Positions 40,692 through 58,498 of a stretch of 58,744 nt of DNA are shown piece by piece. Source of the stretch: Campylobacterota bacterium (lineage in GTDB: Bacteria > Campylobacterota > Campylobacteria > Campylobacterales > Sulfurimonadaceae). The stretch spans positions 8,949 through 67,692 of the forward strand of contig JAYEMF010000138.1 of the NCBI GenBank assembly GCA_034717975.1. The letters are read 5' to 3'. Under the pieces are notes generated by a model that was given only the letters and a program-made list of their open reading frames with translations, searched no databases and was not told the origin of the DNA. The position numbers were made by a program, and so were the translations under genes. Each line of letters starts with the position of its first letter. Position 1 is the first letter of the stretch.

Positions 40692-40750
40692 AACACTGTC
40701 TTCCTAGATATAATAGAATAAATTCTTATACCATTATATCACACTTAGTG

Positions 40751-42415
40751 TTAGATTTTGGAAACCACCTTGTTCCGGCCTCCCTCTTTTGCCTCGTACA
40801 TTGCCCTGTCAACACGGTTAAGCAGATCTTCTGCTGATTCGTTTGTATGGAATTTTGTGACGCCTAAACTGATCGTGAAGTGTGGGATATCCTCTTGAGT
40901 ATATGCTTCAATGGATGAACGAAGCATTTCCGCTTTGACTTCAGCCTGTTCAATATCTGAGTGAGGGAGTAAAATGATAAACTCTTCGCCACCCCAGCGC
41001 ACGACAATATCCTGGTCACGGACATGTTCCTTGATATAGTCGGCCAGTGTTGTCAGTACCGCATCACCTACCGCATGTCCATGGGTGTCATTGATCTCTT
41101 TGAAGTGGTCGATGTCGAACATAATGGTGGACAAAGGATGGCTGTAACGGTTGGCACGGTCGATCTCCTGCTGAAGCAGCTGGGTGAATTTCCGCCGGTT
41201 GTAAAGGTGGGTAAGCGGATCATAGGCAGCCTGATCTTCAAACGCCTTGGACTCTTCGGCAAGAAGCGTGATGTCGCTCATGGAAATGACAAAGTAATCC
41301 TCATTAAGATCATAGGTGTTTATAGTGACATTAAAGGTGTGTTCCAGACCCTCCTGATCGGCAAGTGTAACTATTCTGTCAATTTCATCGAGCTCCATGA
41401 TCTGGAACGCCCAGAATACTTTCTGGTTGTTGACGGTCGGGGTAAATGAACCACATCTGTCTATGAAAGAGTCACATATGCAGGCTTTGCGTTCCAAAAC
41501 GGCATTGACTGTCTCTTTTGAGAAGAAACGTTCAAAGGCACTGTTAAAGCTTAGAAGATGATGCCCGTCGGTTACCATGATGATACTGCTTTGTGAGTTG
41601 AGCACGGCCCGAAGTTCATCCGTTTTCAGTTTAACCTCTTCTTCGAGCTGCTGGTTAAAGGTTTCAATTTTTGCCTGTTTTGCTTCAAGGTCTTTATTTA
41701 AGAGCGTGATAGATAATTTTTGTATTAACTGTTTTTGAAAGATCACGATCAAAATGAGGATAATGGCGGCAAAAAGAAGCATAATATAGATGGTACGCTG
41801 CCGGGCATCTATATATGCGGCATCAATCGTTTCTGTTGAGAGGGTAATGCTGATCGCACCGCGGATATCACCCAGTGTATACCCCTGCTGCTTATGACAT
41901 GCAAGACATGATTGTGCAGTCACCATTGCTCCGGCAAAACGAAGCTGCTGTTTATCCGGAAAACGTTTATAGTGATGCTTTGAATCCCTGTCTTTTTCAA
42001 AAAGAGTAAGGGCCTCTGTTTCAAAAGCATCTGGTACGTTAATCGGATTGGTGGGGTCCAGACTGGTCAGGCGAAAGGAGTACCCCTCTATGGAGGAGAT
42101 CTCAGAGAGCTGGCGGGTCATCCAGGCCGGATTGATCTTGATAAGGGTCAGGTTCTCATCGACTTTTAAGGTGTTGTTCGGGAGGTAAGGGTTGGGAGTT
42201 ATGCCATCTGCCGGCTTGACATAGACACCTCCGAAGTGTGCATTCCATTTACGGGTGTTGATGATATCGTCATAATGTAAAATAGCCTCTTGGATCAGGG
42301 CCGCTTCACTGTCTTTTTCTGTCTGTTTGAGGTTGTTCAATAAAATAGTTACAACAAAGCTGGTTAATATTAGGAGGAACAATAAAAAAAGCCAGAAAGA
42401 ACGCTCTTTAATCAC
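40751..42415 (-). CDS. periplasmic heme-c-motif sensor (DUF3365/Tll0287-like) - PAS - GGDEF diguanylate cyclase
   Basis: TM, a roughly 190-aa periplasmic region containing CLACH (CxxCH), a second TM, coiled coil, a PAS-like region, and GGDEF with RDQDIVVRWGGEEF. GTG start. Confidence 0.8.
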   Translation of the reverse strand: MIKERSFWLFLLFLLILTSFVVTILLNNLKQTEKDSEAALIQEAILHYDDIINTRKWNAHFGGVYVKPADGITPNPYLPNNTLKVDENLTLIKINPAWMTRQLSEISSIEGYSFRLTSLDPTNPINVPDAFETEALTLFEKDRDSKHHYKRFPDKQQLRFAGAMVTAQSCLACHKQQGYTLGDIRGAISITLSTETIDAAYIDARQRTIYIMLLFAAIILILIVIFQKQLIQKLSITLLNKDLEAKQAKIETFNQQLEEEVKLKTDELRAVLNSQSSIIMVTDGHHLLSFNSAFERFFSKETVNAVLERKACICDSFIDRCGSFTPTVNNQKVFWAFQIMELDEIDRIVTLADQEGLEHTFNVTINTYDLNEDYFVISMSDITLLAEESKAFEDQAAYDPLTHLYNRRKFTQLLQQEIDRANRYSHPLSTIMFDIDHFKEINDTHGHAVGDAVLTTLADYIKEHVRDQDIVVRWGGEEFIILLPHSDIEQAEVKAEMLRSSIEAYTQEDIPHFTISLGVTKFHTNESAEDLLNRVDRAMYEAKEGGRNKVVSKI

Positions 42416-42578: not shown

Positions 42579-42814
42579 GACTGAGCGTACACCTTAAACT
42601 GAGGTGAGTTTTGAATTACCATGGCTTTGCCTGCATCTAAACGTTGATGACAATATAAGAAAAAGTGTTTAAGTATAGGTCAATAATGCTGAATACCTTA
42701 AAAAAAACAGTAATTATTGAAACTTAAGAAAAAATTTAACCTTTATTGATGTAGAATATATTCAAGTATCGAATATCCGTGTCAGAAAGTGTAATACTTC
42801 AGGAGGCTGGGAAG

Positions 42815-44176
42815 ATGGTCAATATTCTGGTTATCGAAAATGCGGAAGAAAACAGATGCGCATTGCAAGAAGCGCTAGAGCATTTTGACAATCTGAAGAT
42901 TGTATCCGTAAATAGTTACGAAGAAGCAGTTGAACTGAGCAAAGAGCACTATTTCGAACTTGTCTTCTTCGATGTTTCCTGTATAGATAAGGTCTGTTTT
43001 GAAACTATCAGAACCCTTAAAGCACTTAATGTCGAGATGATAATCATCGCTTTTAACAGTGAACATGATCCTGAGACCGAGCAAACCATCCTCTCCCTGG
43101 GTGCAAAAGACTATATCAATAAATTTATCGATGTCGATCTCATGGCTCAGCGGCTTGAAAACTATCTTGAAATCATTCAGCTCAAAAAGCAGCAACTTTT
43201 TAATACCGAAGCGGTCAACCTCTTCAATAAAAATATTTTTCAGCGTATGACCACCTTCAATCTTGATTCTCATACCGGTATAGTCGAGTTTTGGGACTAT
43301 TTTATGGAAGACCACATTGAAACGTATGAATATTTGAAAGAATCCATAGGTATTTTGTATGCTTTTTCCAGCTGGCTTTTTAAAAGTCATCATGAGTGTC
43401 AGGTTATTCAAGAGCTGGATCACTCAGCTCTCTATCTGACAATGACGCCGATCGATACGCTTAGTGATAAAGTAATTGACGATATCTTCCGCAAATATGA
43501 CGGAAATGTGGCTTATCTGAAACAGGATAACAAACTCTCGTTAAAACTGAACAAGATCGGCGTTGAAGCAGCTATGGAAACGGCCGATGAAGCAGAGATT
43601 GAAACGGTTGTTGAAACGGTTAGTCCGGATATAAGTGAAAAGCCCTCCGAAGAGCTACTCGAAATCGATGATGAAACGCAAAAAATACTGGGAAAAACCC
43701 ATTTTAACAAGATCAGTGCTGCTGAATTTGTGGAGATGACGGCTATCTCCTACATGAGCAAGATCGACTCATTGATAGAGATAGAGGATCAGATCGATGA
43801 AGCGCTGATCAGCTTTGAAGATGAACCGAGTACTGAAAAGACGCATCTTATTTCCGAGGCGTTCATGCGTTATGTCGAAGTGATCAAACTGCTTGTTGAG
43901 TTTGACCATCTTGTCTTTGCCATCATGACCCTTGCCAGTGCGATCGACGGGATTACAGAAGAGAAGTTGACCCCGAAAGAGATTAAGAAGTTTACGACGC
44001 TGGCACTGCATCTTATAAACGACCTGAGCAGCTGGCGTGACAATATATTTATCAAGCAGGAGGCAAATGATATTCACTATCTTGACTCTTCGCTGCTGAG
44101 TTCATGCCTGCAGATCGAGAGCATTTTCGCAGACAAAAAAATTGAAGAGGAGGAAGACGATTTTGAACTCTTTTAA
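42815..44176 (+). CDS. acidic protein with N-terminal (partly degenerate) receiver domain and uncharacterised C-terminal 330 aa; ChePep-like architecture
   Basis: REC-like fold with EN in place of the DD pair (LVIENAE), the phospho-Asp position kept (LVFFDVS), and K kept (GAKDYINKF). The rest is E/D-rich with a helical C-terminus. I chose ATG 42815 as start (AGGAGG 8 nt upstream). The track start is GTG 42779. Confidence 0.6.
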   Translation: MVNILVIENAEENRCALQEALEHFDNLKIVSVNSYEEAVELSKEHYFELVFFDVSCIDKVCFETIRTLKALNVEMIIIAFNSEHDPETEQTILSLGAKDYINKFIDVDLMAQRLENYLEIIQLKKQQLFNTEAVNLFNKNIFQRMTTFNLDSHTGIVEFWDYFMEDHIETYEYLKESIGILYAFSSWLFKSHHECQVIQELDHSALYLTMTPIDTLSDKVIDDIFRKYDGNVAYLKQDNKLSLKLNKIGVEAAMETADEAEIETVVETVSPDISEKPSEELLEIDDETQKILGKTHFNKISAAEFVEMTAISYMSKIDSLIEIEDQIDEALISFEDEPSTEKTHLISEAFMRYVEVIKLLVEFDHLVFAIMTLASAIDGITEEKLTPKEIKKFTTLALHLINDLSSWRDNIFIKQEANDIHYLDSSLLSSCLQIESIFADKKIEEEEDDFELF

Positions 44177-44373
44177 GAAAAGTAGATATAGGATGTTTCC
44201 CGGATACCTGCACTTAATTTACATAGTTCCTCCATTTTATTTTTCTATAATCTCAAAAAGTTGTTCAAATATACCTATTAGAGTGTCAACGCTTCTGTCT
44301 GTGCTTAAAAAGAGGGTATTAACGTTGATTTTATTAGTAACAGATTTTAATTTCATGAAAAAGGAGAGGAGTT

Positions 44374-44760
44374 TTGGCTAAGAAAATAATTTTAGTGGAT
44401 GATTCGAAGACAATCCTGGCTACGGCCGAGATGGCATTGGAGGATCTTGTTGCTGATGGAACGATTACGTTGACAACGTATCTCAATCCGGCAGAGTTGC
44501 GTGATGCACTGATCGGCGGCAGTGAAGATTTTGATCTGCTGATCAGTGATATCAATATGCCACAGCTAAACGGCCTTGATCTTGCTACCGAACTGAAACA
44601 GAATGATGGATTTAAAAACAAACCTATCCTTATCCTGACGACGGAGAGTTCGGCGGAGATGAAAGCCAAAGGCAAAGAGATCGGGGTTACGGGATGGCTG
44701 GTCAAGCCCTTCAGTGACGAAAAACTGGTCAAAGCCATGAAGATGGTGTTAGGAATCTAA
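44374..44760 (+). CDS. cheY: chemotaxis response regulator CheY
   Basis: 128-aa single REC domain: LVDDS, LLISDINMP, ILILTTES, LVKPF. TTG start with AGGAGAGGAG SD. Confidence 0.85.
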   Translation: MAKKIILVDDSKTILATAEMALEDLVADGTITLTTYLNPAELRDALIGGSEDFDLLISDINMPQLNGLDLATELKQNDGFKNKPILILTTESSAEMKAKGKEIGVTGWLVKPFSDEKLVKAMKMVLGI

Positions 44761-44761
44761 G

Positions 44762-45274
44762 ATGGATGAGACAAAGAAAACAGAAGAGCTCACCACGGCA
44801 AACAGGTACTTGACCTTTTTTGTCGAAGATGAGCAGTATGGGATAGATATCTCTAAAATAAAAGAGATCATAGCTGCGATGCATATTACCCATATTCCAA
44901 AGACACCGGATTTCGTCAAAGGGGTGATCAACCTGCGCGGTTCGATTATCCCGGTGGTAGATATCCGGTTGAAATTCGGAATGCCTGAACGTGAGATCGA
45001 TATGAACACGGCGATCATCATCTATGAGGTGGACAAGGTCTCTATCGGTTTTATTGTCGATCAGGTCGAAGATGTGCTTTCGTTAGATAAAGAGCATATT
45101 TCTGAAGCCCCCCATTTTGGCAGCAGTATCGATACCTCCTTTATCGAGAATGTGGCGGAAGTAGATAATGACGTCATTATGCTTCTGAACCTGGAGAAGA
45201 TCTTTGAGGCGGAAGAGTTGCTGGATATCAGTAAATTGGAACGTGAAGAAAAACAGAAAGAAGAGGTGGACTAA
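44762..45274 (+). CDS. cheW: chemotaxis coupling protein CheW
   Basis: [21 protein letters not shown]...[21 protein letters not shown]...[11 protein letters not shown]. Begins 1 nt after the cheY stop. Confidence 0.9.
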
Positions 45275-45275
45275 G

Positions 45276-47264
45276 ATGAAAATGACAATCAAAAAACAGT
45301 TGATTATTGCACTGCTGTTAGTAGGGATTACACCGTTTGTGATCATGGGTATCAGTTCGTATACGAAAGCCAGCGGGGCGCTGGACCATGAAGCACATTC
45401 CAAGCTGGAGATGGCGCGCGACCTGAAAAAAGCGCAGCTGGAGAACTATGTCAAGTTTATCGACGGTTCTATCGGTATGCTGGGGCAGAGCGCCGATGTC
45501 AACAATATGTTTTCGGAACTGCTCCGTCTGCACAATAAACATCATGTAGGGGCGAATGAGCCGTTTCATATTACCGAAGAACCGGAAGTACAGGAACTCT
45601 ATAGACAATACGACAGTTATTTCAAGGCATTCCTGGACAAATACGGCCTTTATGATCTCTTCATGATCTGTAAACCGCACGGCCATGTCATGTATACGTC
45701 TGCCCGTGAGTCTGACCTCGGAGAAAACCTGAAGGTGGGTCAACTGCGTGACAGCGGTCTGGCTGAAATACATAGAGAGGTGGTTTCCCAGCGCAAGACG
45801 GTCTTTGTAGATATGCGCCCTTATGCGCCAAGCGGTGGAGCACCGGCTATGTTTATGGGTACGCCTATTACCGATAAAGACGGAAATATGAAGGGCGTAG
45901 TAGCCGTCCAGCTCAGCGAGAAGTCTGTTAACGAGATTATGCAGAACCGTGCGGGTATGGGAGAGACGGGTGAGACCTATCTGGTGGGATCTGACAAGCT
46001 GATGCGTTCGGACAGTTTCCTTGATCCGACGAACCACTCGATCGAAGCATCGTTTAAAAATCCTTCATCCGGATCGGTCAACACTGATGCAGTCAATGCG
46101 GCACTCTCAGGTAAATCAGGGACGGAAATCGTTACTGATTACAAGGGCCATCAGGTCCTCTCTTCTTACACGCAGATTGACTTTTTCGGTGTTCACTGGG
46201 CACTGCTCGCAGAGGAGGACGAGTCAGAAGTCTTTGGACCGGTCTATGAACTGCGTAACAATGCAGTGGTGATGGGACTGATATTTCTTGGGTTGATCAT
46301 CGCCATCGCGCTCTTTCTTGGGCGTTTCATCTCCAAGCCGATCATTACGGCTGTCGTCTCGATCATGGAGTCTAACGACCAGGTGGTCAGTGCATCGACA
46401 GAGATCGCTGACTCGGCTACGGGTCTGGCTGAGGGTGCAAGTGAACAGGCAAGCAGTGTGGAGCAGGTGAGTGCCACCGTTGAAGAGTCTACCGCCATCA
46501 ACACGCAGAATTCCAGCAACTCCCGTGAAGCGGATATTTTGGCCAAAGATGCGAAAGCCTCTGCCGAAGATGGCGCCGTCAAAGGTGATGAACTTATCAG
46601 TGCTATGGATGAGATCAACAGCTCAAGCGAGCGTATCTCTAAAATTATCAAGACGATCGACGAGATCGCTTCACAGACAAAACTGCTTGCCCTCAATGCG
46701 GCGGTCGAAGCAGCGCGTGCAGGTGAACATGGACTTGGTTTCGCGGTGGTCGCCGATGAAGTCAAAAGTCTGGCACAGCGTTCGTCTGATGCGTCTACCG
46801 AAACTGCCAGTATTATTGAGGAGTCGATCTCCCAGACCAAAAAAGGGTCTGAGATCGCTCAACTTACTTCACAGTCTTTCCAGGATATTCTGGAGCGCAT
46901 CAATAAAACTTCCAACCTCATTGGTGAGATCTCTATCTCTGCCAAAGAGCAGAGTGAAGGGATGAACCAGATCGCTACTGCCATGGGTGAGATCGATCAG
47001 GTCACTCAACAGAATGCGGCGACCAGTGAAGAGGCTGCTGCTGCAGCCGAAGAGCTTAATGCGCAGGCAGTCTCGATGAAAGAGACGGTAAATGTCATCG
47101 CTGCCATGGTTGGTGAGGCAACGAATGCGACAACGGCATCGAACCCGTCACAAAGCAGGGCACAGACACGACGTGCACCGCGTCCGGCAAGAGCTGCTGC
47201 TCCGGCACAGAAAAGTGCCGATGATGTCTTTCCTCTGGATGAAGAGGATCTCAAGGAGTTCTAG
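45276..47264 (+). CDS. methyl-accepting chemotaxis protein with double-Cache-like periplasmic sensor
   Basis: TM, a roughly 290-aa periplasmic region, a second TM, and the MCP hairpin [43 protein letters not shown]. It has an Ala/Pro/Arg-rich tail ending DEEDLKEF. I moved the start to ATG 45276 (1 nt after the cheW stop). Confidence 0.9.
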
Positions 47265-47528
47265 ATGACCATTGATGGCGATACCCTTGAAATCGAGCTC
47301 GATATGGACATCAAAGATGTCGTTGAGCTGAAAAACTTTGTAGCTGACAGGCTCGAGTATATCGAAGCTGTCACTATTACAGGAGAGATGGATGCCTTTA
47401 CCTCCTCTTCCCTGTTCCAACTGCTTCACAGTATCAAAAGATCAAAGCCGTCGATCACTATCAATGCGATCGATGCGGATTTAATGCTTGAGCAGTATGG
47501 CCTGATACATTGGGTGAAACATGACTAA
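47265..47528 (+). CDS. STAS (SpoIIAA / anti-sigma-antagonist-like) domain protein
   Basis: 87 aa. LEIELDMDIKDVVELKNFVADRL...VTITGEMDAFTSSSLFQLLHSIKRS...ITINAIDADLMLEQYGL follows the STAS beta-alpha pattern with a Ser-rich loop at the phospho-Ser position. The ATG abuts the MCP stop, and there is an 8-nt overlap with cheA. Confidence 0.6.
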   Translation: MTIDGDTLEIELDMDIKDVVELKNFVADRLEYIEAVTITGEMDAFTSSSLFQLLHSIKRSKPSITINAIDADLMLEQYGLIHWVKHD

Positions 47529-49653
47529 AGAGCAGATACGTGAGATTTTCATCGAAGAAGCGACAGAGATCATCGAAAAACTCGATGTCGATATCATCAA
47601 CTTCGAAGAGAATCCCGAAGACAAAGAACTCCTGCATGGACTCTTCCGTGGCGTCCATACCCTGAAAGGGAGTGCCAACTCCTTTGGCTTTACCCGTCTG
47701 GGTGAGTTTGTCCACCACTTTGAGGATGTGCTTGATCATTACCGTAATACCGATGATGAAGTGACACCGCAGAGTATAGATCTCTTTTTGACCGCGGTGG
47801 ACATTATTAAAGATGTGATGTGGCGTGAGGTCGATGGCAATGAAGGCGTGCCGGACACTTACAATGAGACACTGGCGGGGATCAAAGCGATCCTTGCCTA
47901 TAAAACAGGTGAAACGGCAGAGGAAGAAGCTCTTCCTGATCTTGCAGCCGAGTTTGCAGAAGTACCTGTGAATGCACCGGCAGAAGTGACAGCCGGAGGC
48001 CATTTCAATGAAGAGGATATCAAGCGCTTTAAGACGATGCTTGAAGATGGTGAAGAGCTCTATCATATCGCACTGACACTCGATGATGATATCTACTTTC
48101 GCGGCTTTGATCACGCCAAGATATTCAAACTTTTAAAGGATGAGGGACACCTCCTCGAATCATGGTGGGATATGGGTGATGTTCCGGAACTTGCAAAGCT
48201 CGATCCGGAACGATGTTTCATTAAACGGGTTGATCTTTTTCTGGCCAGCCGCAATATCGCTTCAGATATCGAGGAGATCTTTGAGTATATCGATGAGCAT
48301 GAGTTTACCTTTCAGCACATGGAAAAAGAGCCGCCTCCGCCGAAACCAGAGCCAAAGCCGCTTAGAGAGGAAGATATCAAGTTTGGCCGTCGGCAAGAAG
48401 ATAATGAGCCAGAACCATCAGGCAGACGCAAGTCAGATAGAAAAGAACCCGATGTCAGTCGCGGCCGCCGTAAAAATGATGCCCGTTCCTTTGTCAAGAT
48501 CGATACCAATAAACTTGATGAACTCTTTGACTCGGTAGGAGAGTTGGTCATCGCGCAGAACTATATCGCTGAGAGTGAAGATATTAAAAAGATCAAACAT
48601 GAGGGTGTGAACAAAACCATGAATCACCTTTCAAAGATCACCCGTCTTATTCAGAACCGGGTCATGTCTTTACGGATGGTCGCGGTCAGTGATACCTTTG
48701 AGAAGATGAAGCGGGTAGCACGCGATGCTTCCAAGAAAGTAAACAAAGAGATCTCACTGGAGATCGAAGGCGGCGATACCGAGATCGATAAGACTATGGT
48801 CGATGCGCTCTCTGATCCGCTCATTCACATTATGCGTAATGCGATCGATCACGGGATTGAAGATGATGTTTCAGACCGTATCGCGCTCAATAAAACGGAG
48901 ACCGGTGTTATTTCACTTCGGGCATTCCATCGTGGCGGCAACATTGCCATCGAGGTCTCCGATGATGGTCGCGGTATTAACCGTGATAAAGTCTTTGCCA
49001 AAGCGGTTGAGCGTGGACTGATCAATGAAGATGATGAGCTGAGTGATTCGCAGGTCTTCGCTCTGATTATGCAGGCCGGTTTTTCAACGGCTGATGTGAT
49101 CAGTGATATCTCCGGACGCGGGGTAGGGCTGGATGTGGTACGAAGTTCCATTGAGAAGCTTCATGGCCGGGTGGAAATTTCATCAGAAGTAGGTAAAGGC
49201 TCGACTTTTACCATTTTACTTCCGCTGACACTGGCCATTATAGACGGTATGGTCGTTAAAAGTGCCAACGATACCTTTATCATTCCGACACTTTCCGTAG
49301 TGGAGTCATTTATCCCTTCCAAAGAGATCGTACACTCCATCAAACAGCAGGGTGAGTTTGTCGACCTTCGGGGTGAGATGATCCCGATCGTCCGACTCAA
49401 TCATGTATTAGAGATCAGTGAAGATAAACCGGAGATCTGCGAGTCGACACTGATGTGTGTCGAGAGTGATAAGGGCAAGTATGCCGTGTTGGTCGATGAT
49501 CTTATCGGCCGCCAGCAGGTGGTCATCAAGTCACTTGGCCCGACACTTTCGAAGATCAAAGAACTCTCCGGCAGTGCCATCATGGGTAGCGGTGAGATCG
49601 CATTGATCCTGGATGTTGAACAGCTGTTGATTCAGGGGGAGGCAAAAGAGTGA
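47521..49653 (+). CDS. cheA: chemotaxis histidine kinase CheA (no fused receiver)
   Basis: P1 Hpt (LFRGVHTLKGSANSFGF), a PPPPKPEPKP linker, a dimerisation domain, the kinase core (DPLIHIMRNAIDHGIE, SDDGRGIN, GRGVGLDVV) and a P5 CheW-like end. Confidence 0.95.
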   Translation: MTKEQIREIFIEEATEIIEKLDVDIINFEENPEDKELLHGLFRGVHTLKGSANSFGFTRLGEFVHHFEDVLDHYRNTDDEVTPQSIDLFLTAVDIIKDVMWREVDGNEGVPDTYNETLAGIKAILAYKTGETAEEEALPDLAAEFAEVPVNAPAEVTAGGHFNEEDIKRFKTMLEDGEELYHIALTLDDDIYFRGFDHAKIFKLLKDEGHLLESWWDMGDVPELAKLDPERCFIKRVDLFLASRNIASDIEEIFEYIDEHEFTFQHMEKEPPPPKPEPKPLREEDIKFGRRQEDNEPEPSGRRKSDRKEPDVSRGRRKNDARSFVKIDTNKLDELFDSVGELVIAQNYIAESEDIKKIKHEGVNKTMNHLSKITRLIQNRVMSLRMVAVSDTFEKMKRVARDASKKVNKEISLEIEGGDTEIDKTMVDALSDPLIHIMRNAIDHGIEDDVSDRIALNKTETGVISLRAFHRGGNIAIEVSDDGRGINRDKVFAKAVERGLINEDDELSDSQVFALIMQAGFSTADVISDISGRGVGLDVVRSSIEKLHGRVEISSEVGKGSTFTILLPLTLAIIDGMVVKSANDTFIIPTLSVVESFIPSKEIVHSIKQQGEFVDLRGEMIPIVRLNHVLEISEDKPEICESTLMCVESDKGKYAVLVDDLIGRQQVVIKSLGPTLSKIKELSGSAIMGSGEIALILDVEQLLIQGEAKE

Positions 49654-50480
49654 GCCGGGAGCATGACCTTACCATAGCCGAGTTTAAGAAGTTTCAGCAG
49701 CTGATCTATGACGAGATCGGTATCTCGCTGGCTGATCATAAACGTACACTGGTCCAGTCACGTTTGAGAAAATGGCTGAGTGAATTTGACATGCCAAACT
49801 ACAAAGCGCTATATAAGAAGATAGCAGATGATAAAAGCGGCCAGATGTTAACGATGCTTGTCAATGCGATTACGACCAATGTGACCTCTTTCTTTCGGGA
49901 GGAGAACCAGTGGATCTATCTGCAGGAGCATATGGCTGAACTGTTTGATACAAAGAGCAAACGCATCCGTATCTGGTCGGCAGCCTGTTCCAGCGGACAG
50001 GAGCCCTACAGCATCATTATGTTTTTGAAAGAGCACCTGGCCAACTTTCATCAGTGGGACATCAAAATCCTGGCGACAGATATCTCCGAAGAGATCCTGC
50101 ATAAAGCCACAGAAGGTATTTATGCCCAAAAAGATGTGGAAAACCTGCCGCGTCATATAGTGCATAATTATTTTACGGTGGTAAAAGATAAAAAGGGTCT
50201 CAAGGCCTTTGCCATCAAAGAGGAGCTCAAGAAGTACATCACCTTTCGTGCCTTTAATCTTGTCACAGGTAACTTTGGACTCTTTAAAAACAACTTCGAC
50301 ATGATCTTCTGCCGTAATGTCATGATCTACTTTGACCGTCCAACGCAGAACACACTGCTTGAACAGTTCGCAAAACGGCTTGACAAGCATTCGAGACTCT
50401 TTATCGGGCACTCCGAGTCGATTCACAATAAAGAGGGAAGCTACAAGATGGTTGTCCCCTCGATCTATAGACTACAGTAA
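49650..50480 (+). CDS. cheR: chemotaxis protein methyltransferase CheR
   Basis: NVTSFFRE, IRIWSAACSSGQEPYSI, ILATDIS, FDMIFCRNVMIYFD. The GTG start overlaps the cheA stop (GTGA). Confidence 0.9.
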   Translation: MSREHDLTIAEFKKFQQLIYDEIGISLADHKRTLVQSRLRKWLSEFDMPNYKALYKKIADDKSGQMLTMLVNAITTNVTSFFREENQWIYLQEHMAELFDTKSKRIRIWSAACSSGQEPYSIIMFLKEHLANFHQWDIKILATDISEEILHKATEGIYAQKDVENLPRHIVHNYFTVVKDKKGLKAFAIKEELKKYITFRAFNLVTGNFGLFKNNFDMIFCRNVMIYFDRPTQNTLLEQFAKRLDKHSRLFIGHSESIHNKEGSYKMVVPSIYRLQ

Positions 50481-50489
50481 GGATAGAGT

Positions 50490-51380
50490 ATGGAAATTTC
50501 AGAAACTACTGACAACGAGCTGCTTCAGGAGATTAGCCGCCGTTTTGAAGAGAAGGCATCTTCGATCAAAGAGATGGAGTTTATGACCAAAAAACTTCTT
50601 GAACTCAATGAAAAGAACAAAGAGGCGCAGGAGGTCAAAAGCAAGTTTCTCTCACTGATCAAAAATGAGTTCAATAATCCGATGTCATCTTTGCTTAATC
50701 TTGTCAATATGATGGTTAAAAAGGCGGATGATGCCCGTATGGCGGACTTGTCCGGAATGATGAAAATGGAGCTGCTCAAACTTGATTTCAGCCTGAAAAA
50801 TATCTTCGCCGCGTCGGAGATCGAAGCCGGCGAGATCGCCAATGACTACTCCAAGGTTGAGATCAAAGATATTCTGGATGAAGTGATTGACTATTTCAGC
50901 TATCTCATTGCAGAAAAATCACTTGAGATCAACTATAGCTGCAACTGTGATGAACAGATCATCAGCGACTCCCAAAAACTCGATACGATCTTGCTCAATC
51001 TTGTCTCAAATGCCTGCGAATACTCCTTTGAAAACTCACATATCAATGTCATCGTAGATTGTGATGAGATGAACTACTCCATTACGGTCGAAGATGCAGG
51101 AGAAGGTGTATCGCATGACCATGCCAAAGATATCTACAACCGCTTTTCGCATTTCGAGTCTGGTAAAACACGCCGTACCGCCGGTCTTGGTCTGGGACTG
51201 AGCGTCACACGCGGGATGGTGGAAGCCCTGGAAGGCTCTATCGATAACATTACCAAAGAGGGGAAAACGATATTTATCGTCACAATCCCGAAAGTCAATG
51301 AAGAGCAGGTCGAACTTTCGCAAGGGATCGGCTCGAATGAGTTTATCTTTGATGATGGTGAAGGAATGGTGGAGTTCTAA
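50490..51380 (+). CDS. soluble histidine-kinase-like GHKL ATPase lacking the H-box histidine
   Basis: Coiled-coil N-terminus. The DHp-like helix reads KSKFLSLIKNEFNNPMSSLL, with Asn where SHELRTPL has His. The N box (LLNLVSNACEYS), G1 (VEDAGEGV), F (IYNRF) and G2 (GLGLGLSV) are intact. No TM or sensor domain. Confidence 0.75.
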   Translation: MEISETTDNELLQEISRRFEEKASSIKEMEFMTKKLLELNEKNKEAQEVKSKFLSLIKNEFNNPMSSLLNLVNMMVKKADDARMADLSGMMKMELLKLDFSLKNIFAASEIEAGEIANDYSKVEIKDILDEVIDYFSYLIAEKSLEINYSCNCDEQIISDSQKLDTILLNLVSNACEYSFENSHINVIVDCDEMNYSITVEDAGEGVSHDHAKDIYNRFSHFESGKTRRTAGLGLGLSVTRGMVEALEGSIDNITKEGKTIFIVTIPKVNEEQVELSQGIGSNEFIFDDGEGMVEF

Positions 51381-51490
51381 TGAGCCCTTCTATTCTGGAT
51401 AGAATTAGCTTTAGTGCCAGAGCGGTAAGTGTTCACTGTACGGGCTTAGCCCGTACAGTGACCAAAAAAATAGTTTTGGTGGAGTTCTAA
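51381..51490 (+). repeat. 110-bp insert between HK-like gene and cheD, bounded by a 14-bp direct repeat
   Basis: TGGTGGAGTTCTAA occurs at 51367-51380 and 51477-51490. Inside lie a perfect 12-bp-stem hairpin CACTGTACGGGC-tta-GCCCGTACAGTG (51434-51460) and a 6-bp hairpin TTCTAT-tctgg-ATAGAA. Frame 51380..51490 is open (36 codons). Confidence 0.8.
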
Positions 51491-51955
51491 ATGTACACCC
51501 GGAAGTTTATCCACGTTGGTGAGATCCATATCGGTGCCAGACCGACCGAGATCAGTACGATCCTGGGTTCATGTATCGCCGTGTGCCTCTATGACAATAT
51601 CCAGCGTGTCGGTGGTATGAACCACTATCTGGTTCCTTTATGGAATGAGAACGGCCTGCAGACGCCGAAATTTGGCAATATCTCCATCCCGAGACTGATC
51701 GAGAGTATGGTCAATGTCGGGTGTGATGTTCACAATATGGAAGCCAAAGTGTTCGGCGGCGGCAATGTGATCGATATAAAGCAGGAAGATATGATGATCG
51801 GACGAAAGAACATCCTGATCGCCAAAGAGATATTGCGGGAGTATGGTATTCCCATCACTGCACAGGATGTCGGTGGCGAGAAGGGCAGACGGATTATGAT
51901 GCGCAGTGACACAGGAAAGATTTTTTTGAAATATACACAGAAAAGTGAAGAGTAG
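51491..51955 (+). CDS. cheD: chemoreceptor glutamine deamidase CheD
   Basis: ILGSCIAVCLYD (catalytic Cys context), NHYLVP, AKVFGGGNV. Confidence 0.9.
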   Translation: MYTRKFIHVGEIHIGARPTEISTILGSCIAVCLYDNIQRVGGMNHYLVPLWNENGLQTPKFGNISIPRLIESMVNVGCDVHNMEAKVFGGGNVIDIKQEDMMIGRKNILIAKEILREYGIPITAQDVGGEKGRRIMMRSDTGKIFLKYTQKSEE

Positions 51956-51958
51956 AGT

Positions 51959-53002
51959 ATGGGAATAAATGTTCTTGTAGTCGATGACAGTGCCACGGCA
52001 CGGGCAATTCTGACTGAAATACTTCAAAGTGATTCTGAAATCGGCAGGATAGATACCGCTCCTGATGCCTACATCGCCCGTGATAAGATCGTAAAATCCC
52101 GTCCCGATGTTGTCTGCCTGGACGTCGAGATGCCTCGGATGGACGGGATCACTTTTTTAAGAAAGCTGATGCAGCATATGCCGATCCCGGTCGTGATGGT
52201 CTCATCGTTGACCCAAAAAGGGGCACAGACTACACTGGATGCGCTTGAAGCCGGAGCGGTTGATTTCATTCCCAAACCCCATTCAAACATCTACGAGAGT
52301 TCCGATGATATCCGTGAAGAGCTGCTCGAGAAGGTCAAAAATGCTGCGTATGCCCATGTGACCAAACACGTGAATACAGGGCCGGCTAAACACCTGAGTT
52401 ACCATAGTTCACTTTCGGAGACGACCCAGAAGCTGATCGCCATAGGAGCCTCCACCGGTGGTGTTGAAGCGCTTAAAGCTTTTTTGACCCAGTTTCCGCG
52501 TAATGCACCGGGTATGTTGATCGTTCAGCACATGCCGGCTGATTTTACCAAGCAGTTTGCCGAGCGTCTGGACGGTGTCTGTGAGATCGATGTCAAAGAG
52601 GCCAAAAACGGTGACACGGTCAATATAGGCGAGGCACTGCTGGCTCCAGGGGATATGCATATGGTCCTTCGGCGTTCCGGACACCGCTACTATGTCCAAC
52701 TGGGCGGTGGAGATAAAGTTTCAGGTCACCGCCCTTCGGTGGACGTCATGTTCAACTCTGTTGCCAAAACGGCCGGTGTCAATGCGCTTGGCGTAATTTT
52801 GACCGGAATGGGCTCTGATGGTGCCAAAGGATTGACCAATATGCGTAAATCCGGTGCCATGACCTTTGGACAGGATAAAAAAAGTTCTACCGTTTACGGT
52901 ATGCCAAAGGTGGCTTTCGAACTGGGTGGTGTGGCCAAGCAAAGCTCCCTTGAAGCACTGCCTGGAGATATGTTGCGTCATCTTGAGAAGATGGAGAGCT
53001 AA
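51959..53002 (+). CDS. cheB: protein-glutamate methylesterase CheB (REC + esterase)
   Basis: REC domain (VLVVDDSATAR, VVCLDVEMPRMDG) and esterase domain (IAIGASTGG, LIVQHMP, SGHRPSVD, GMGSDGA). Confidence 0.95.
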   Translation: MGINVLVVDDSATARAILTEILQSDSEIGRIDTAPDAYIARDKIVKSRPDVVCLDVEMPRMDGITFLRKLMQHMPIPVVMVSSLTQKGAQTTLDALEAGAVDFIPKPHSNIYESSDDIREELLEKVKNAAYAHVTKHVNTGPAKHLSYHSSLSETTQKLIAIGASTGGVEALKAFLTQFPRNAPGMLIVQHMPADFTKQFAERLDGVCEIDVKEAKNGDTVNIGEALLAPGDMHMVLRRSGHRYYVQLGGGDKVSGHRPSVDVMFNSVAKTAGVNALGVILTGMGSDGAKGLTNMRKSGAMTFGQDKKSSTVYGMPKVAFELGGVAKQSSLEALPGDMLRHLEKMES

Positions 53003-54267
53003 TGCAAAATGTACTGATCGTTGATGACAGCAAATTTATCCGCACTATTGCCGAAGAGGAGATTTTGCGTGTTGTCGATGCCAATATTGTCACGGCGGCA
53101 TCTTACAAAGAGACGCAAGCGATCATTAAAGAGCATGCGTTCCATGTAGCCGTACTGGATGTTCATCTTCCCGATGCGGAGAAGGGCGAGGTGATCGACC
53201 TGCTTGTGGAGAAAAATGTTCCCGTTGTCGTCTTGACCGGGGGAATGAATGCAACGACAAAAGAGATTATTCTTAATAAAGAGATCATCGAGTATGTCAC
53301 CAAAAGTGACCCTCAAACTATCAAATATATGGCTGCCATTGTTAAACGGGTCCTGAAAAATTATGATGAGCATGTCCTGATCGTGGATGACTCCAAGAGT
53401 TCCAGAATGTTGTCGAAGATGTACCTTGAAAAACTCAAAGTCAACGTATTGGAAGCGAGCAGTGCCAAAGAAGCTATGGAGATGATCAATGCAACTGAGC
53501 ATCACGTCTCTTTGGTCCTGACTGATTATGAGATGCCGGATATGAACGGTATGGAGCTGGCCATGCAGCTGCGTCAGAGTTATAGTAAAGACCAGCTCTC
53601 CATTATTGCTGTAAGCGGCACTGAAATGTCACATATAGCTACAGACTTTTTACGCCACGGGGCCAATGACTTTATTAAAAAACCGTTCACCTATGAAGAG
53701 TTCGCCGTACGGGTCAATGTCAACCTTGAACTGATCGACCTTTTTATCGAGAGTAAAGAGAGTGCCAACAAAGATTTTATGACCGGCCTCTATAACCGCC
53801 GTTTTTTCTTTGAGAGCGGTGAGCCCCTGTTAGCCAAAGCTCAGAGAAAGAAGAGACCGTTAGCTGTAGTGATGTTGGATATTGACTTCTTCAAGCGCGT
53901 CAACGATACTTATGGCCATGATGTGGGTGATATTGCCATTAAAGAGGTAGGAAAGGTTCTCCATAAAATGCTTCGCCAATCAGACCTGATCGCGAGGTTT
54001 GGCGGTGAGGAGTTCTGTCTCCTGCTTGAAGATGTGACGTTGGAAGATCTTGAGAAAAAGTTTGAAGCCATCCGTGCCGTATTTGAAAAAAATGTCATCA
54101 CAGTCGATGATGTCAGCTTCTCCTATACCATTTCCACAGGTATATGTTATGGTCTTGATGATTCGCTAGAGACTCTGATCAAGTACTCCGATGAAGCACT
54201 CTATGACGCGAAAGAGGGCGGGCGCAACAGGGTGGTCATTAAAAACCTGCATACCGGAGATGATTAG
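53002..54267 (+). CDS. REC-REC-GGDEF response regulator diguanylate cyclase (operon output)
   Basis: Two receivers (LIVDDSKF...VLDVHLPD and LIVDDSKS...VLTDYEMPDMNG...IKKPF), then GGDEF with I-site plus active site RQSDLIARFGGEEF. The ATG overlaps the cheB stop (TAATG). Confidence 0.9.
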   Translation: MQNVLIVDDSKFIRTIAEEEILRVVDANIVTAASYKETQAIIKEHAFHVAVLDVHLPDAEKGEVIDLLVEKNVPVVVLTGGMNATTKEIILNKEIIEYVTKSDPQTIKYMAAIVKRVLKNYDEHVLIVDDSKSSRMLSKMYLEKLKVNVLEASSAKEAMEMINATEHHVSLVLTDYEMPDMNGMELAMQLRQSYSKDQLSIIAVSGTEMSHIATDFLRHGANDFIKKPFTYEEFAVRVNVNLELIDLFIESKESANKDFMTGLYNRRFFFESGEPLLAKAQRKKRPLAVVMLDIDFFKRVNDTYGHDVGDIAIKEVGKVLHKMLRQSDLIARFGGEEFCLLLEDVTLEDLEKKFEAIRAVFEKNVITVDDVSFSYTISTGICYGLDDSLETLIKYSDEALYDAKEGGRNRVVIKNLHTGDD

Positions 54268-55473: not shown

Positions 55474-56217
55474 ATGAGAATACTTTTAGGTCTGTTTGTA
55501 ACGGCGCTGCTGCTTTTGGGAAATGAAGTCGAGCGTATTGAGAGTATTGTCAATGATGTGACCAAGCTTCGTCAGAACTATGAAGGGTGTAGAGCCCAAC
55601 TTGCTGCAGTGGAGCGCGGAGAGGGCGGGAACAGTGATGAAAAAATGCTTGCGCTTCAACGCGAGATCCAATCACAGCGAGATCTGTACGAACGTGAAAT
55701 AGAGCGGATGAAAAACGAGCTTATCGTAAGCGAAAAGAAACTCGTCTTGGTGACGCGTTCACTCAAGGATGCCAAGGAAAAAAAGGGTGAGTATAAACAG
55801 CATCTCAATGCTCAGCAGCAAGTGGCAGGTAAACAGAAAAGCACTCAGGTGAAAACAGTCTATGTCACGGCTGATGCTGCGTCCTGTCCCGATCCCAATC
55901 CCTTTCCAAAACTCCTGATGAAAAAGGAGTATACGGCGATGAAGAGCAATGGTACACTGAAAAGTTCCGCTGGAAAAGAAGCGGTGGAAAAACGGACCCA
56001 CTTTAAAGCCAGAGCTTTTAGAATGAAAAACAGGGCCAGGGTCTATGATGCACCCAAAGGTAAAGTGATAGCGACATGGGAGGCAAAAACATCGTTTACC
56101 TCCGGGGAGAAAGAGGGTGACTGGATCAGAATCACCGGTTATTTTATAGATAAAAAATGGCGCCCAAATCGGGATCGTGAGATGTGGGTCGAAAAGAAAA
56201 ATACGATCAGTCGGTAG
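55474..56217 (+). CDS. secreted coiled-coil protein with C-terminal SH3b-like domain
   Basis: Signal peptide MRILLGLFVTALLLLG, a coiled-coil middle part, and C-terminal ARVYDAPKGKVIATWEAKTSFTSGEKEGDWIRITGYF. Confidence 0.5.
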   Translation: MRILLGLFVTALLLLGNEVERIESIVNDVTKLRQNYEGCRAQLAAVERGEGGNSDEKMLALQREIQSQRDLYEREIERMKNELIVSEKKLVLVTRSLKDAKEKKGEYKQHLNAQQQVAGKQKSTQVKTVYVTADAASCPDPNPFPKLLMKKEYTAMKSNGTLKSSAGKEAVEKRTHFKARAFRMKNRARVYDAPKGKVIATWEAKTSFTSGEKEGDWIRITGYFIDKKWRPNRDREMWVEKKNTISR

Positions 56218-56225
56218 GTCAGAGT

Positions 56226-57239
56226 ATGAAAAAAATAGTCAAGCAAACCATTAATCAGGAGTTTCTGCCCGTTTCACCAAAAAAACTGGCTATAGATGAT
56301 GTACTTGATTTTGACTGTTTTATAAAACGTTTTAACGGTTATGCAATCATTCTCGAAGCAGGAACTCCGATCACCAGGGAACTCAAAGAGAAGATCGATG
56401 AACACCGCTTTCTCTATGTCCAGCAGAGGGAGGTCGATCAATATAGAGCCTATGTCGCTGAAAAAGCGGAGTTGGATGAGGAGTCGGAAGAGAAGAAGGG
56501 AGTGGATATTGACACCCTCTTTGAAAACCTGCTCGAATCCCTCAATGCGTGTAAAGATATTGATCAGCAGGTCGCACTGATCTATCAGACAGCATTGAGC
56601 CTGATGGAGGCCTACTTCTCAGCCGGGAATGAAGAGATCATGCTGAAATATATTGAGCTCTACAGTGATGCATTGATCGGGATATTTGATGGATCTGAGT
56701 ATAGACTCGGAGAATTCCTGGATGATATGCCAGATAGCTATGATGATGCATCGCATAATGTCAATGTCAGTTTTTTGGGTGTCTTGCTTGGCAGGGAACT
56801 GGGGTTGAGCAATCTTCAGCTTCATGAACTCTCTATTGCCGGAATTTTGCATGATATCGGCAAGGTCAGGATAGACCCGAAGATACTGAATAAAGACAGT
56901 TCGCTTGACAGTGATGAGTTTGAGGCTGTTCAGGAACATTCGGTATTTAGTGTTGAGATCGCAAAATATAACGGTGTGAGCAGTGCCAATGTACTCTCTG
57001 CCATACGGTATCATCATGAAAAGCTTGACGGAAGCGGTTACCCTGAAGGGCTGGAGGGGAATAAGATCCCGTTAATGGCCCAGATGATCGGAATCTGTGA
57101 TATCTTTGATGCATTGACCACCGATCATACTTTTCGGGCACGATACAGCAGTTTTGATGCGTTGAAGTTAATGAAGAGAGAGATGGCTCAGCAGCTCAAC
57201 GGCAGCTATGTCAATACGTTTATCAAGCTGTTGAAGTAA
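56226..57239 (+). CDS. HD-GYP domain c-di-GMP phosphodiesterase
   Basis: GILHDIGKV (HD) and HHEKLDGSGYPEGL (GYP). I moved the start to ATG 56226 (MKKIVKQ). The track start 56184 overlaps the upstream gene. Confidence 0.85.
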   Translation: MKKIVKQTINQEFLPVSPKKLAIDDVLDFDCFIKRFNGYAIILEAGTPITRELKEKIDEHRFLYVQQREVDQYRAYVAEKAELDEESEEKKGVDIDTLFENLLESLNACKDIDQQVALIYQTALSLMEAYFSAGNEEIMLKYIELYSDALIGIFDGSEYRLGEFLDDMPDSYDDASHNVNVSFLGVLLGRELGLSNLQLHELSIAGILHDIGKVRIDPKILNKDSSLDSDEFEAVQEHSVFSVEIAKYNGVSSANVLSAIRYHHEKLDGSGYPEGLEGNKIPLMAQMIGICDIFDALTTDHTFRARYSSFDALKLMKREMAQQLNGSYVNTFIKLLK

Positions 57240-57250
57240 GGAGATCATGA

Positions 57251-58498
57251 ATGCAAAGCCACTATATAGGTCGACAACCGATCATTGATAATCAAGGTAG
57301 TGTACTTGCATACGACCTGGTTTATGAAGATGGGGAAGCTGGAGCGACCTCAAATCGTGCTCTGGCATCGACATTGATCAGCACGGTTTTAAACACCGTC
57401 GGAGTCAAAAGCGTACTGGGTGAGCGTATGGGGTTTGTTCGTATCGATCACAAGTTTCTACTCAGTGATCTGATGCTCTCCGCACCAAAAGAGTTTTTTG
57501 TCTTCTCCCTTTTGGATACGACGATCATTGATGAGAAGTTGGTTGAACGGATGAAAGAGCTCCGTGGGCAGGGTTACTGGTTTGCACTGGATGACATTAC
57601 CCGTCATACCGGTCCGCTGCAGCGTTTTAGTCCGATCTTGCCCTATCTCAACTTTTTCAAGATCGATATCCGTTATTTTCCCGAACAGTATCTGGCAAAA
57701 CTGAAAAAGATTTTGAGTGAATTTCCGCTGGAGGTGGTCATCACCCATGTTGAAAACGATGATCAGTATGCGATTTGCAGATCGCTGCGTTTTCCTTACC
57801 TGGAAGGGTATTACTTTGCTGAGCCGAATATCATTGAAAACAAAAGCTTTGATCCTAAAACTTTTGTGGTTATCCAGCTCTACAACCAGCTGATGTCTGA
57901 TGAGAGCACTCTTGATCAGCTTGTTCAGACTTTTGAGACCAACCATGATCTGACTATTCAGCTACTGCAGTACATCAACTCAAAAGCCTTTAGCCTTGCG
58001 AACAATGTATCGAATGTCAAACAGGTGTTGGCACTGCTGGGACGTCAACCGTTGGCGCAGTGGCTGATGCTGCTGATCTACGGCAAGTCGATCAGCACTT
58101 CAAAATATCAAGAGCCTTTGCTGCTTATGGTCAAAAACCGGACAGAACTGATGTCCGGGCTTTTAAAGCTGGTTAGACCCGGAGCCGATAAAACGATGCA
58201 GGGAGAGGCCTATTTTATAGGAGTAATGTCCCTTTCGAGTGTCGTGCTGGGGATGCCGCTGCGGCTGATACTCAAAGAGATGCATATTTCAGATGAAGTG
58301 CGTGAGGCACTGTTGGAGAAAGCAGGATTGCTGGGCGAGATGTTGAGTGCCGTCAAGGCGATCGAGAAGTTTGATACTGAAGTCATTGATGCCTATGCCG
58401 CAGCACATCAACTCTCCCGTAATGCGATCCAGGAGCTGATGACACGTACTATGGAGATTGTCACCGGTTTTGAAGCAGGGATGCCAAAAAACTTTTGA
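57251..58498 (+). CDS. EAL-like plus HDOD domain signalling protein
   Basis: EAL-fold landmarks (IGRQPIIDNQGSVLAYDLVYE, WFALDDI, FFKIDI, THVENDDQY, LEGYYFAEP), then an HDOD-like helical region (LLQYINSKAFSLANNVSNVKQVLALLG). The EAL triplet reads DLV. Confidence 0.75.
   Translation: MQSHYIGRQPIIDNQGSVLAYDLVYEDGEAGATSNRALASTLISTVLNTVGVKSVLGERMGFVRIDHKFLLSDLMLSAPKEFFVFSLLDTTIIDEKLVERMKELRGQGYWFALDDITRHTGPLQRFSPILPYLNFFKIDIRYFPEQYLAKLKKILSEFPLEVVITHVENDDQYAICRSLRFPYLEGYYFAEPNIIENKSFDPKTFVVIQLYNQLMSDESTLDQLVQTFETNHDLTIQLLQYINSKAFSLANNVSNVKQVLALLGRQPLAQWLMLLIYGKSISTSKYQEPLLLMVKNRTELMSGLLKLVRPGADKTMQGEAYFIGVMSLSSVVLGMPLRLILKEMHISDEVREALLEKAGLLGEMLSAVKAIEKFDTEVIDAYAAAHQLSRNAIQELMTRTMEIVTGFEAGMPKNF

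Follow-up and report, generated by a model that had tools for sequence, protein, structure and literature searches.

The window analysed here is a stretch of 58,744 nucleotides from a Campylobacterota bacterium of the Sulfurimonadaceae (assembly GCA_034717975.1, contig JAYEMF010000138.1, positions 8,949 to 67,692), in which the list of open reading frames (ORFs) and Pfam annotation place one chemosensory operon on the plus strand at 42779–54267. The operon encodes, in order, REC-X, CheY, CheW, a dCache receptor (MCP), an 87-amino-acid (aa) ORF, CheA, CheR, a 296-aa ORF, CheD, CheB and a REC-REC-GGDEF protein. The 296-aa protein, a His-less protein of the HisKA type hereafter called HKl, is a class I histidine-kinase homologue composed of DHp and CA domains, and the absence of the phospho-acceptor histidine is a property of its whole family. 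The 87-aa protein is accepted here as a minimal, divergent STAS domain. An earlier note on this DNA, made from the letters alone, had joined the two ORFs into a partner-switching pair; both are confirmed as conserved genes at their coordinates, and a different arrangement is favoured for their products. We read them as separate accessories of one widespread, F7/F8-like chemosensory operon type, with the STAS protein as a CheS-like adaptor on CheA and HKl as a CheD-coupled, phosphatase-competent protein. This reading is held tentatively, at slightly less than an even chance, and we infer every biochemical activity and physical interaction in it.

HKl and its conserved parts occupy the following positions.

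50490..51380, plus strand: HKl, 296 aa, with coiled coil and DHp at residues 8–113, CA domain at 120–267 and disordered tail at 279–296 (Pfam, model)
50646..50681, plus strand: H-box equivalent, F53-L-S-L-I-K-N59-E60-F-N-N63-P64, with the Asn59 codon at 50664–50666
50847..51290, plus strand: CA (GHKL ATP-binding) domain of HKl, with N174, D202xG204xG206, F219 and G232xG234xG236 (Pfam, alignments)
51312..51377, plus strand: C-terminal tail of HKl, ..SNEFIFDDGEGMVEF, conserved in the family

Pfam assigns HATPase_c (PF02518) to HKl at 1.6e-19 and places HisKA (PF00512) below threshold, at 13.6 bits, while NCBIfam kinase models cover residues about 40–270, all far under their cut-offs. A profile built from 60 HKl sequences matches the solved class I kinases WalK, GacS, HK853, DivL and RetS, the last four over both DHp and CA (E 1e-40 and better), and Foldseek with the HKl model retrieves the same kinases. 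In the AlphaFold model, a long helix (8–78) and a return helix (82–113) precede the CA domain and the disordered tail, and there is no transmembrane or sensor region. The profile aligns the FLSxIKNEFNNP-type H-box, FLSNIKNEINNPL, with FIANISHELRTPL of HK853 (E 1e-40), equating Asn59 with His260, Glu60 with Glu261, Asn63 with Thr264 and Pro64 with Pro265. The earlier note had read this substitution from the sequence, along with intact N, G1, F and G2 boxes and the lack of a sensor or membrane segment, and was right on each point.

Three surveys, all made with motif-independent searches, show how widely the substitution is shared. Homologues of HKl form 597 clusters at E≤1e-5, with names mostly from Sulfurimonas and Sulfurospirillum, and Asn occupies the His position in all 119 informative close relatives. 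A HMMER search of 1.8 billion representatives added about 110 further clusters of ~295-aa proteins at 31–50% identity; here 108 of 110 carry Asn, one carries Thr (Desulfurispirillum indicum) and one Ser. A search from one distant member, spanning Bacteroidota, Nitrospirae, Magnetococcales, Desulfuromonas and Thiohalospira, found N-E-x-x-N-P in 116 of 116 sequences, one with Asp at H+4. In total, 343 of 345 relatives have Asn at the phospho-acceptor position and none has His. A strain-specific loss of the histidine was considered and rejected, as relatives with as little as about 30% identity still have Asn in essentially every case. Among the relatives, Thr stands at this position solely in the D. 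indicum homologue (locus L062, 10001–10885), within an otherwise more canonical H-box, KTEFRTP. Because the phospho-acceptor is fixed as Asn, autophosphorylation of HKl on histidine is excluded, as judged from sequence.

The residues around the lost histidine are equally constrained. N59, E60, N63 and P64 are invariant in two 60-sequence alignments, including members only 29–37% identical to the window protein, and Glu112 in DHp helix 2 is invariant as well. In the CA domain, N174, G204, F219 and G232/G234/G236 are invariant in one alignment of 60 sequences (A5), with G204 present in 59 of 60 in a second (A3), and D202 and G206 are about 90–95% conserved. The basic residue of the N box is replaced by Glu177 in only 67–75% of sequences and was not used as evidence.

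This pattern resembles that of histidine-kinase mutants that have lost one activity and kept the other. NtrB H139N is one such kinase-negative, phosphatase-positive HisKA mutant. In CrdS, the His-loss mutant H371A keeps its phosphatase activity through the Thr/Asn at H+4, the residue that the HKl family retains. CrdA~P has a half-life of 2.6 min with CrdS H371A, compared with 0.7 min with the wild type and 53.5 min without CrdS; H+4 Asn/Thr is specifically required for HisKA phosphatase activity, whereas H+1 Glu is needed for the kinase but not the phosphatase activity of CrdS (Willett & Kirby 2012). EnvZ is a further kinase-negative, phosphatase-positive HisKA case, cited in the same paper. 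These are laboratory mutants of bifunctional sensors, whereas HKl, a protein without a sensor, lacks the His naturally and throughout its family. By analogy, HKl would be kinase-dead while keeping the phosphatase determinant (H+4 Asn, H+1 Glu, H+5 Pro) and the nucleotide pocket, and could act as a nucleotide-dependent phosphatase of phosphorylated receivers (CheY~P) or as a CheY~P-binding regulator, forming one unit with CheD. The CheY encoded at 44374–44760 is the most likely receiver for both CheA and HKl. The E60-x-x-N63 of HKl also recalls the E-x-x-N motif of CheC and CheX (used by CheX according to Willett & Kirby 2012), although in HKl it lies on the DHp helix and the likeness is one of spacing only. 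CheC and CheX have a fold of their own and CheZ is a helix bundle, whereas HKl is a histidine-kinase DHp and CA protein with its ATP-binding domain kept.

The 87-aa gene and its putative phospho-acceptor loop are positioned directly before cheA.

47265..47528, plus strand: 87-aa minimal STAS-fold protein in a CheS-like position (model, Foldseek, profile comparison)
47397..47414, plus strand: loop and helix N-terminus F45-T46-S47-S48-S49-L50, with the Ser48 codon at 47406–47408

Its STAS identity, which the earlier note had recognised from the strand and helix pattern, is supported by structure and profile–profile comparison but not by standard domain models. Pfam gave no STAS or STAS_2 (PF01740, PF13466) match for the protein at E≤1, NCBIfam was also without a hit, none of 41 homologues scored against STAS or STAS_2 at E≤10, and the family profile against PDB sequences returned noise only and no STAS protein. 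Two of its 70 homologous clusters are labelled 'STAS domain-containing' in UniRef. The AlphaFold (AF2) model, made from 41 homologues, is confident (pLDDT 90) and shows a beta-beta-alpha-beta-alpha core. Foldseek places SpoIIAA in its unphosphorylated form first among PDB structures (probability 0.98, TMq 0.54, with a weak E of 0.03), and the list continues with RsbS, MlaB, the YchM STAS domain and RsfB at E-values of 0.03 or above. Distantly related operons have a 100–125-aa gene at the same place, beside cheY/cheA. Eight such small proteins served as a STAS_2 comparison set; of seven scanned in Pfam, six score above the gathering threshold of STAS_2 or STAS, and for the eighth protein precomputed annotation shows a weak STAS_2 match. 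Alignment by hhalign of the 87-aa family profile with the profile of these eight gave a probability of 73% and an E/P of 3e-5. An hhalign comparison with a lone SpoIIAA sequence, an approximate query, was not significant. The assignment thus rests on the structure model and on the profile–profile match to the STAS_2 proteins of sister operons.

The loop that the earlier note had aligned with the DSSGL phospho-serine loop is conserved within the phylum and variable in the wider STAS_2 set. Throughout the Campylobacterota 87-aa family, F45, S48 and L50 are invariant, with S or T at position 47 and S or A at position 49, and in the model S48 caps helix 2 at its N-terminal end, where Ser58 lies in SpoIIAA. 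The corresponding residues of the STAS_2 proteins read DTSG, DTTG, DLTG, DLSG, DLCF, DIAC or HLSI. The position is T, L, I, H or absent in these varied loops; a residue that could be phosphorylated is therefore not general among them.

The gene is closely tied to cheA. Its ATG immediately follows the MCP stop codon (TAGATG), its end overlaps the cheA start (ATG at 47521) by 8 nt, and it is translationally coupled to cheA in this operon; the overlap hints at a stoichiometric STAS–CheA partnership. It lies directly 5' of cheA in every gene order printed for Campylobacterota and D. indicum, and a STAS_2 gene adjoins cheY/cheA in eight loci outside Campylobacterota. The arrangement is similar to that of CheS of Sinorhizobium meliloti, a STAS-only protein of alpha-proteobacterial che operons that binds CheA and alters the handling of CheY (it accelerates CheY1~P turnover) without a kinase partner. 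The likeness is one of gene position, a STAS-only gene beside cheY/cheA in a che operon; the 87-aa protein differs in being shorter and too divergent for Pfam. By this analogy it would bind CheA and tune CheA–CheY traffic as CheS does.

Gene neighbourhoods were compared in 55 Campylobacterota loci and 84 loci from other organisms (80 from a metagenome scan and 4 from single look-ups). The core order in Campylobacterota is CheY-CheW-(MCP)-STAS-CheA-CheR-HKl-CheD-CheB, and the full operons of other organisms read STAS_2-CheY-CheA-...-CheR-HKl-CheD-CheB or near variants. HKl is directly followed by cheD in at least 112 of the 118 loci with enough downstream sequence. Six loci appeared to be exceptions; three were coordinate artefacts, and D. 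indicum, the Thr variant, is truly without cheD. This D. indicum locus (L062) is the only full operon that has no cheD after the HKl-type gene. Where at least 6 kb was available on both sides (48 loci), cheA was found in 40 and a STAS-like gene in 38, never without cheA, and the remaining eight have HKl-cheD with neither cheA nor a STAS gene nearby. The HKl and STAS genes are adjacent in none of the ~95 loci with a printed gene order, and in the window cheA and cheR lie between them. These counts identify HKl with CheD, and STAS with CheA, as the stable units, rather than HKl with STAS.

HKl-cheD pairs also stand alone outside che operons, at 957–1997 of locus L064, 9968–13555 of L094 and 10007–11453 of L132. 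A SiaC-family gene (PF09345) comes after one pair and a conserved 112-aa ORF with HDOD and GGDEF genes after another; the third lies among housekeeping genes for PNPase, an M16 peptidase and a UvrD-type helicase. In three loci (L118, L122 and L128) the cheD directly after HKl is joined by a paralogue placed within cheR-cheD-cheB, which suggests that the CheD proteins linked to HKl may form a specialised subfamily.

The link to cheD brings HKl close to known phosphatase systems. In Bacillus and Thermotoga, CheD partners the CheC phosphatase and activates it. The rhizobial operon starts with the STAS gene cheS and has the phosphatase gene cheT after cheD. Like CheC or CheT, HKl is an accessory whose gene is tightly linked to cheD where the system otherwise has no phosphatase: no gene of the CheC, CheX or CheZ families is present in five Pfam-annotated loci, and so the phosphatase role there looks vacant. 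On the reading that we favour, HKl–CheD would be a functional analogue of CheC–CheD, or of rhizobial CheT beside CheD, and would couple the level of CheY~P to receptor modification. The earlier note had itself listed a receiver phosphatase and a pseudokinase as alternatives, and both fit the evidence better than its partner switch.

The second of these alternatives assigns HKl no catalysis at all. As a pseudokinase or sensor in the manner of DivL or RetS, its DHp domain would bind CheY~P or another histidine kinase, including CheA, and relay this to CheD or the array as a scaffold. DivL, with Tyr for His, and RetS are among the nearest solved relatives of HKl, and both put a class I histidine-kinase fold without a functional phospho-acceptor to regulatory use. 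RetS acts on GacS. The very strong conservation of the DHp surface, the absence of a sensor domain, the obligatory linkage with CheD and the tether-like disordered tail are consistent with such a role. However, the invariant N63 and E60 and the nucleotide pocket suggest catalysis or nucleotide-dependent switching. DivL also has PAS sensor domains, RetS is a sensor of several domains, and both lack the link to CheD and an HKl-like tail. Overall, a purely non-catalytic HKl appears unlikely.

The partner switch proposed in the earlier note takes HKl as a HisKA-derived Ser/Thr kinase for Ser48 of the STAS protein (or Ser/Thr47), the unphosphorylated STAS protein gating a target such as CheA. The known pairs SpoIIAA/SpoIIAB and RsbV/RsbW likewise combine a small STAS protein bearing a Ser at helix 2 with a GHKL ATPase unable to use a His acceptor, and in HKl the ATP boxes have been kept despite the loss of His. 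The invariant Ser at the SpoIIAA Ser58 position, the occurrence of HKl and STAS genes in one operon type in Campylobacterota, D. indicum and further metagenome loci, and the one locus that reads HKl-cheD-SiaC are also in its favour, as is the precedent for partner switches within che clusters. Nevertheless, SpoIIAB and RsbW are single-domain anti-sigma kinases, whereas HKl has DHp and CA domains, and HATPase_c_2 (PF13581, the SpoIIAB/RsbW family) reaches 17.6 bits on HKl against a cut-off of 27.4. A SpoIIAB or RsbW gene adjoins that of its STAS substrate, usually with a sigma factor; here the two genes are never neighbours and the locus has neither a PP2C nor a sigma-factor gene. No PP2C/SpoIIE gene was found in the five Pfam-annotated loci; for the window this negative covers the operon, the window-wide listing having given 25 of 68 Pfam families. 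STAS tracks cheA and HKl tracks cheD, down to the eight HKl-cheD loci without either cheA or STAS. In the STAS_2 proteins of sister operons the Ser position varies, with Leu, Ile or no residue in many of them. A partner switch would also leave the invariant E-x-x-N-P of the DHp helix without a role. With its fold, its two gene linkages, the missing PP2C and the variable Ser set against it, the switch is weakly supported and we consider it improbable.

A related version keeps the kinase and moves only the acceptor. HKl would then be a HisKA-derived kinase whose acceptor lies on a partner, either Ser48 of STAS or CheD, and would form an ATP-driven switch gating CheA or receptor modification in the array. 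The His-to-Ser/Thr kinase transitions of plant phytochromes and ethylene receptors would then be a parallel. This version, too, seems improbable to us.

Nor would a partner switch in such an operon be the undescribed wiring that the earlier note had suggested. Partner-switch genes are known from F7-class clusters of the ancestral type (stage 1), for which Vibrio cholerae is the representative, and from Shewanella Che1 with CrsR/CrsA. As in the window, these clusters have STAS genes beside cheY-cheA and the order cheR-cheD-cheB, but they include a PP2C Ser phosphatase (in CrsR together with an anti-sigma kinase domain) and no His-less HisKA protein 5' of cheD. The gene-order figure of Mo et al. 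(2022) for the Campylobacterota F7, F8 and F9 classes contains the codes 'STAS alone' and 'histidine kinase'. Together with CheS, these precedents show that the claim was overstated. The operon type of the window may also be that of the 'type 2' clusters of Geobacter, which combine 34H receptors and NWETF-like tails with cheD and further, unexplained genes. In the literature covered, which is partial, we found no account of this 'kinase' lacking its His or forming a fixed module with cheD.

The C-terminal tail of HKl is conserved, disordered, acidic and aromatic, with the form GNxFxF[DE]...E.F across the wide family. Its last residues resemble the end of the cognate MCP (MVEF or MKEF in HKl, DLKEF in the MCP). 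Three proteins of the operon have such C-termini, the MCP (47223–47261), HKl (..NEFIFDDGEGMVEF, 51312–51377) and REC-X (..EEEDDFELF, 44150–44173), and each of the three tails is kept among orthologues. Wherever the C-terminus of the cluster MCP was recovered in a Campylobacterota locus, the protein ends in the conserved tail, and the HKl tails in those loci end in MVEF, MKEF or AVEM. In operons outside Campylobacterota, MCPs end in the pentapeptide-like E[FY]EK[FY] and HKl in E-x-E-x-F. C-terminal pentapeptides of receptors tether CheR. Tethering of CheB by these pentapeptides is described in the literature. By extension, the HKl tail may dock on the adaptation enzymes whose genes flank it, and on our favoured reading this disordered, MCP-like tail may recruit HKl to them. 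The three similar tails may share one docking partner, for example CheR or CheB.

The tail also invites a different interpretation, in which HKl mimics a receptor. Its four-helix DHp bundle and MCP-like tail would then make it a decoy or substrate for CheR, CheD and CheB that buffers or times receptor modification. The HKl gene lies among cheR, cheD and cheB in most full operons, and the resemblance of the tails and the invariant Glu112 of DHp helix 2 are in keeping with this idea. However, inspection of the DHp helices by eye showed no receptor methylation or deamidation consensus, the HKl tail has no aromatic residue at pentapeptide position 2, and the conserved ATP pocket and E-x-x-N would go unexplained. 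We regard receptor mimicry as improbable.

Several observations weigh against the combination of a CheS-like adaptor and a CheD-coupled phosphatase. Glu60 (H+1) is invariant in HKl, although the corresponding residue serves the kinase activity in CrdS. The strict N, G1, F and G2 boxes seem to exceed the needs of a pure phosphatase, leaving room for an ATP-dependent activity that does not involve His. The pocket and Glu60 both hint at a function beyond that of a phosphatase, which is why we rate the reading no higher. STAS Ser48 is invariant in Campylobacterota, and the HKl-cheD-SiaC locus is the sole contextual hint of a partner switch. The HKl tail is like that of the MCP in part only. Finally, the locus sets were retrieved with peptide patterns containing Asn, and their gene orders therefore describe Asn variants only.

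The remaining features of the operon are as follows.

42779..44176, plus strand: REC-X, a 465-aa REC protein with a ~330-aa C-terminal region and the tail ..EEEDDFELF (Pfam REC)
44374..44760, plus strand: CheY, single-domain (Pfam)
44762..45274, plus strand: CheW (Pfam)
~45276..47264, plus strand: dCache MCP, likely start 45276, tail DLKEF (Pfam)
47521..49653, plus strand: CheA with Hpt, dimerisation, HATPase_c and CheW-like domains (Pfam)
49650..50480, plus strand: CheR methyltransferase, directly 5' of HKl (Pfam)
51381..51490, plus strand: HKl-cheD spacer of 110 nt, with repeats and a hairpin
51491..51955, plus strand: CheD, receptor glutamine deamidase family (Pfam)
51959..53002, plus strand: putative CheB (position and best match to CheB genes of related loci)
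53002..54267, plus strand: REC-REC-GGDEF response regulator (Pfam)

The gene matching the putative CheB in loci L001, L061 and L063 is Response_reg plus CheB_methylest in Pfam. With a length of no more than about 131 residues, the MCP receptor arms fall between classes 34H and 36H, and the system is F7/F8-like. For the ~330-aa C-terminal region of REC-X, no match was found in Pfam, NCBIfam or PDB sequences, the PDB search hitting the REC domain only. Relatives of REC-X occur in about a dozen Sulfurimonas and Sulfurospirillum loci, in two copies in some (filter >36% identity), and all their tails end in DDFELF- or LEFF-type residues. REC-X is an accessory restricted by lineage; among the Campylobacterota loci, both it and the GGDEF regulator are found in some lineages only.

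The spacer between HKl and cheD has features of its own. Within 51368–51490, a 13-nt exact direct repeat, GGTGGAGTTCTAA, brackets the gap, with the first copy at the end of HKl and the second just 5' of cheD. A perfect 12-bp hairpin at 51434–51460 lies inside the gap and occurs once in the window. Because HKl and cheD abut or overlap in many related loci, a small insertion that duplicated its target is the probable origin of the 110-nt spacer.

The c-di-GMP output that the earlier note had attributed to the operon is borne out by Pfam for the REC-REC-GGDEF protein of this locus, while only some relatives share it. Further genes of c-di-GMP type surround the operon: two upstream proteins on the minus strand (39627–42415) have GGEEF motifs, identified by eye, and two downstream ORFs (56184–58498) resemble, by eye only, an HD-GYP protein and an EAL/HDOD protein. 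A similar output exists in the Pseudomonas aeruginosa system that we take to be Wsp. There, c-di-GMP is under the control of a Che system whose response regulator is fused to GGDEF, as reported through a paper that cites the original work.

There are thus precedents for partner switches in che clusters and for c-di-GMP as an output of Che systems. What appears new here is a widespread, His-less, CheD-coupled derivative of histidine kinases, together with a cryptic STAS/CheS-type protein. Recognition of the 87-aa protein as a STAS/CheS-type component would extend this accessory family to Campylobacterota and Chrysiogenota. The HKl relatives are named in their sources simply as '(HAMP domain-containing) sensor histidine kinase' or similar, and may therefore be counted as kinases in two-component censuses based on these labels. 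To our knowledge, CheD occurs in many chemosensory systems without CheC, where its role is unclear, and many systems other than that of E. coli have no known CheY~P phosphatase. HKl, beside cheD, is a concrete candidate for both missing functions. With HKl, a whole natural family would be fixed in a 'kinase-off, phosphatase-on' state, of which point mutants are otherwise the known examples.

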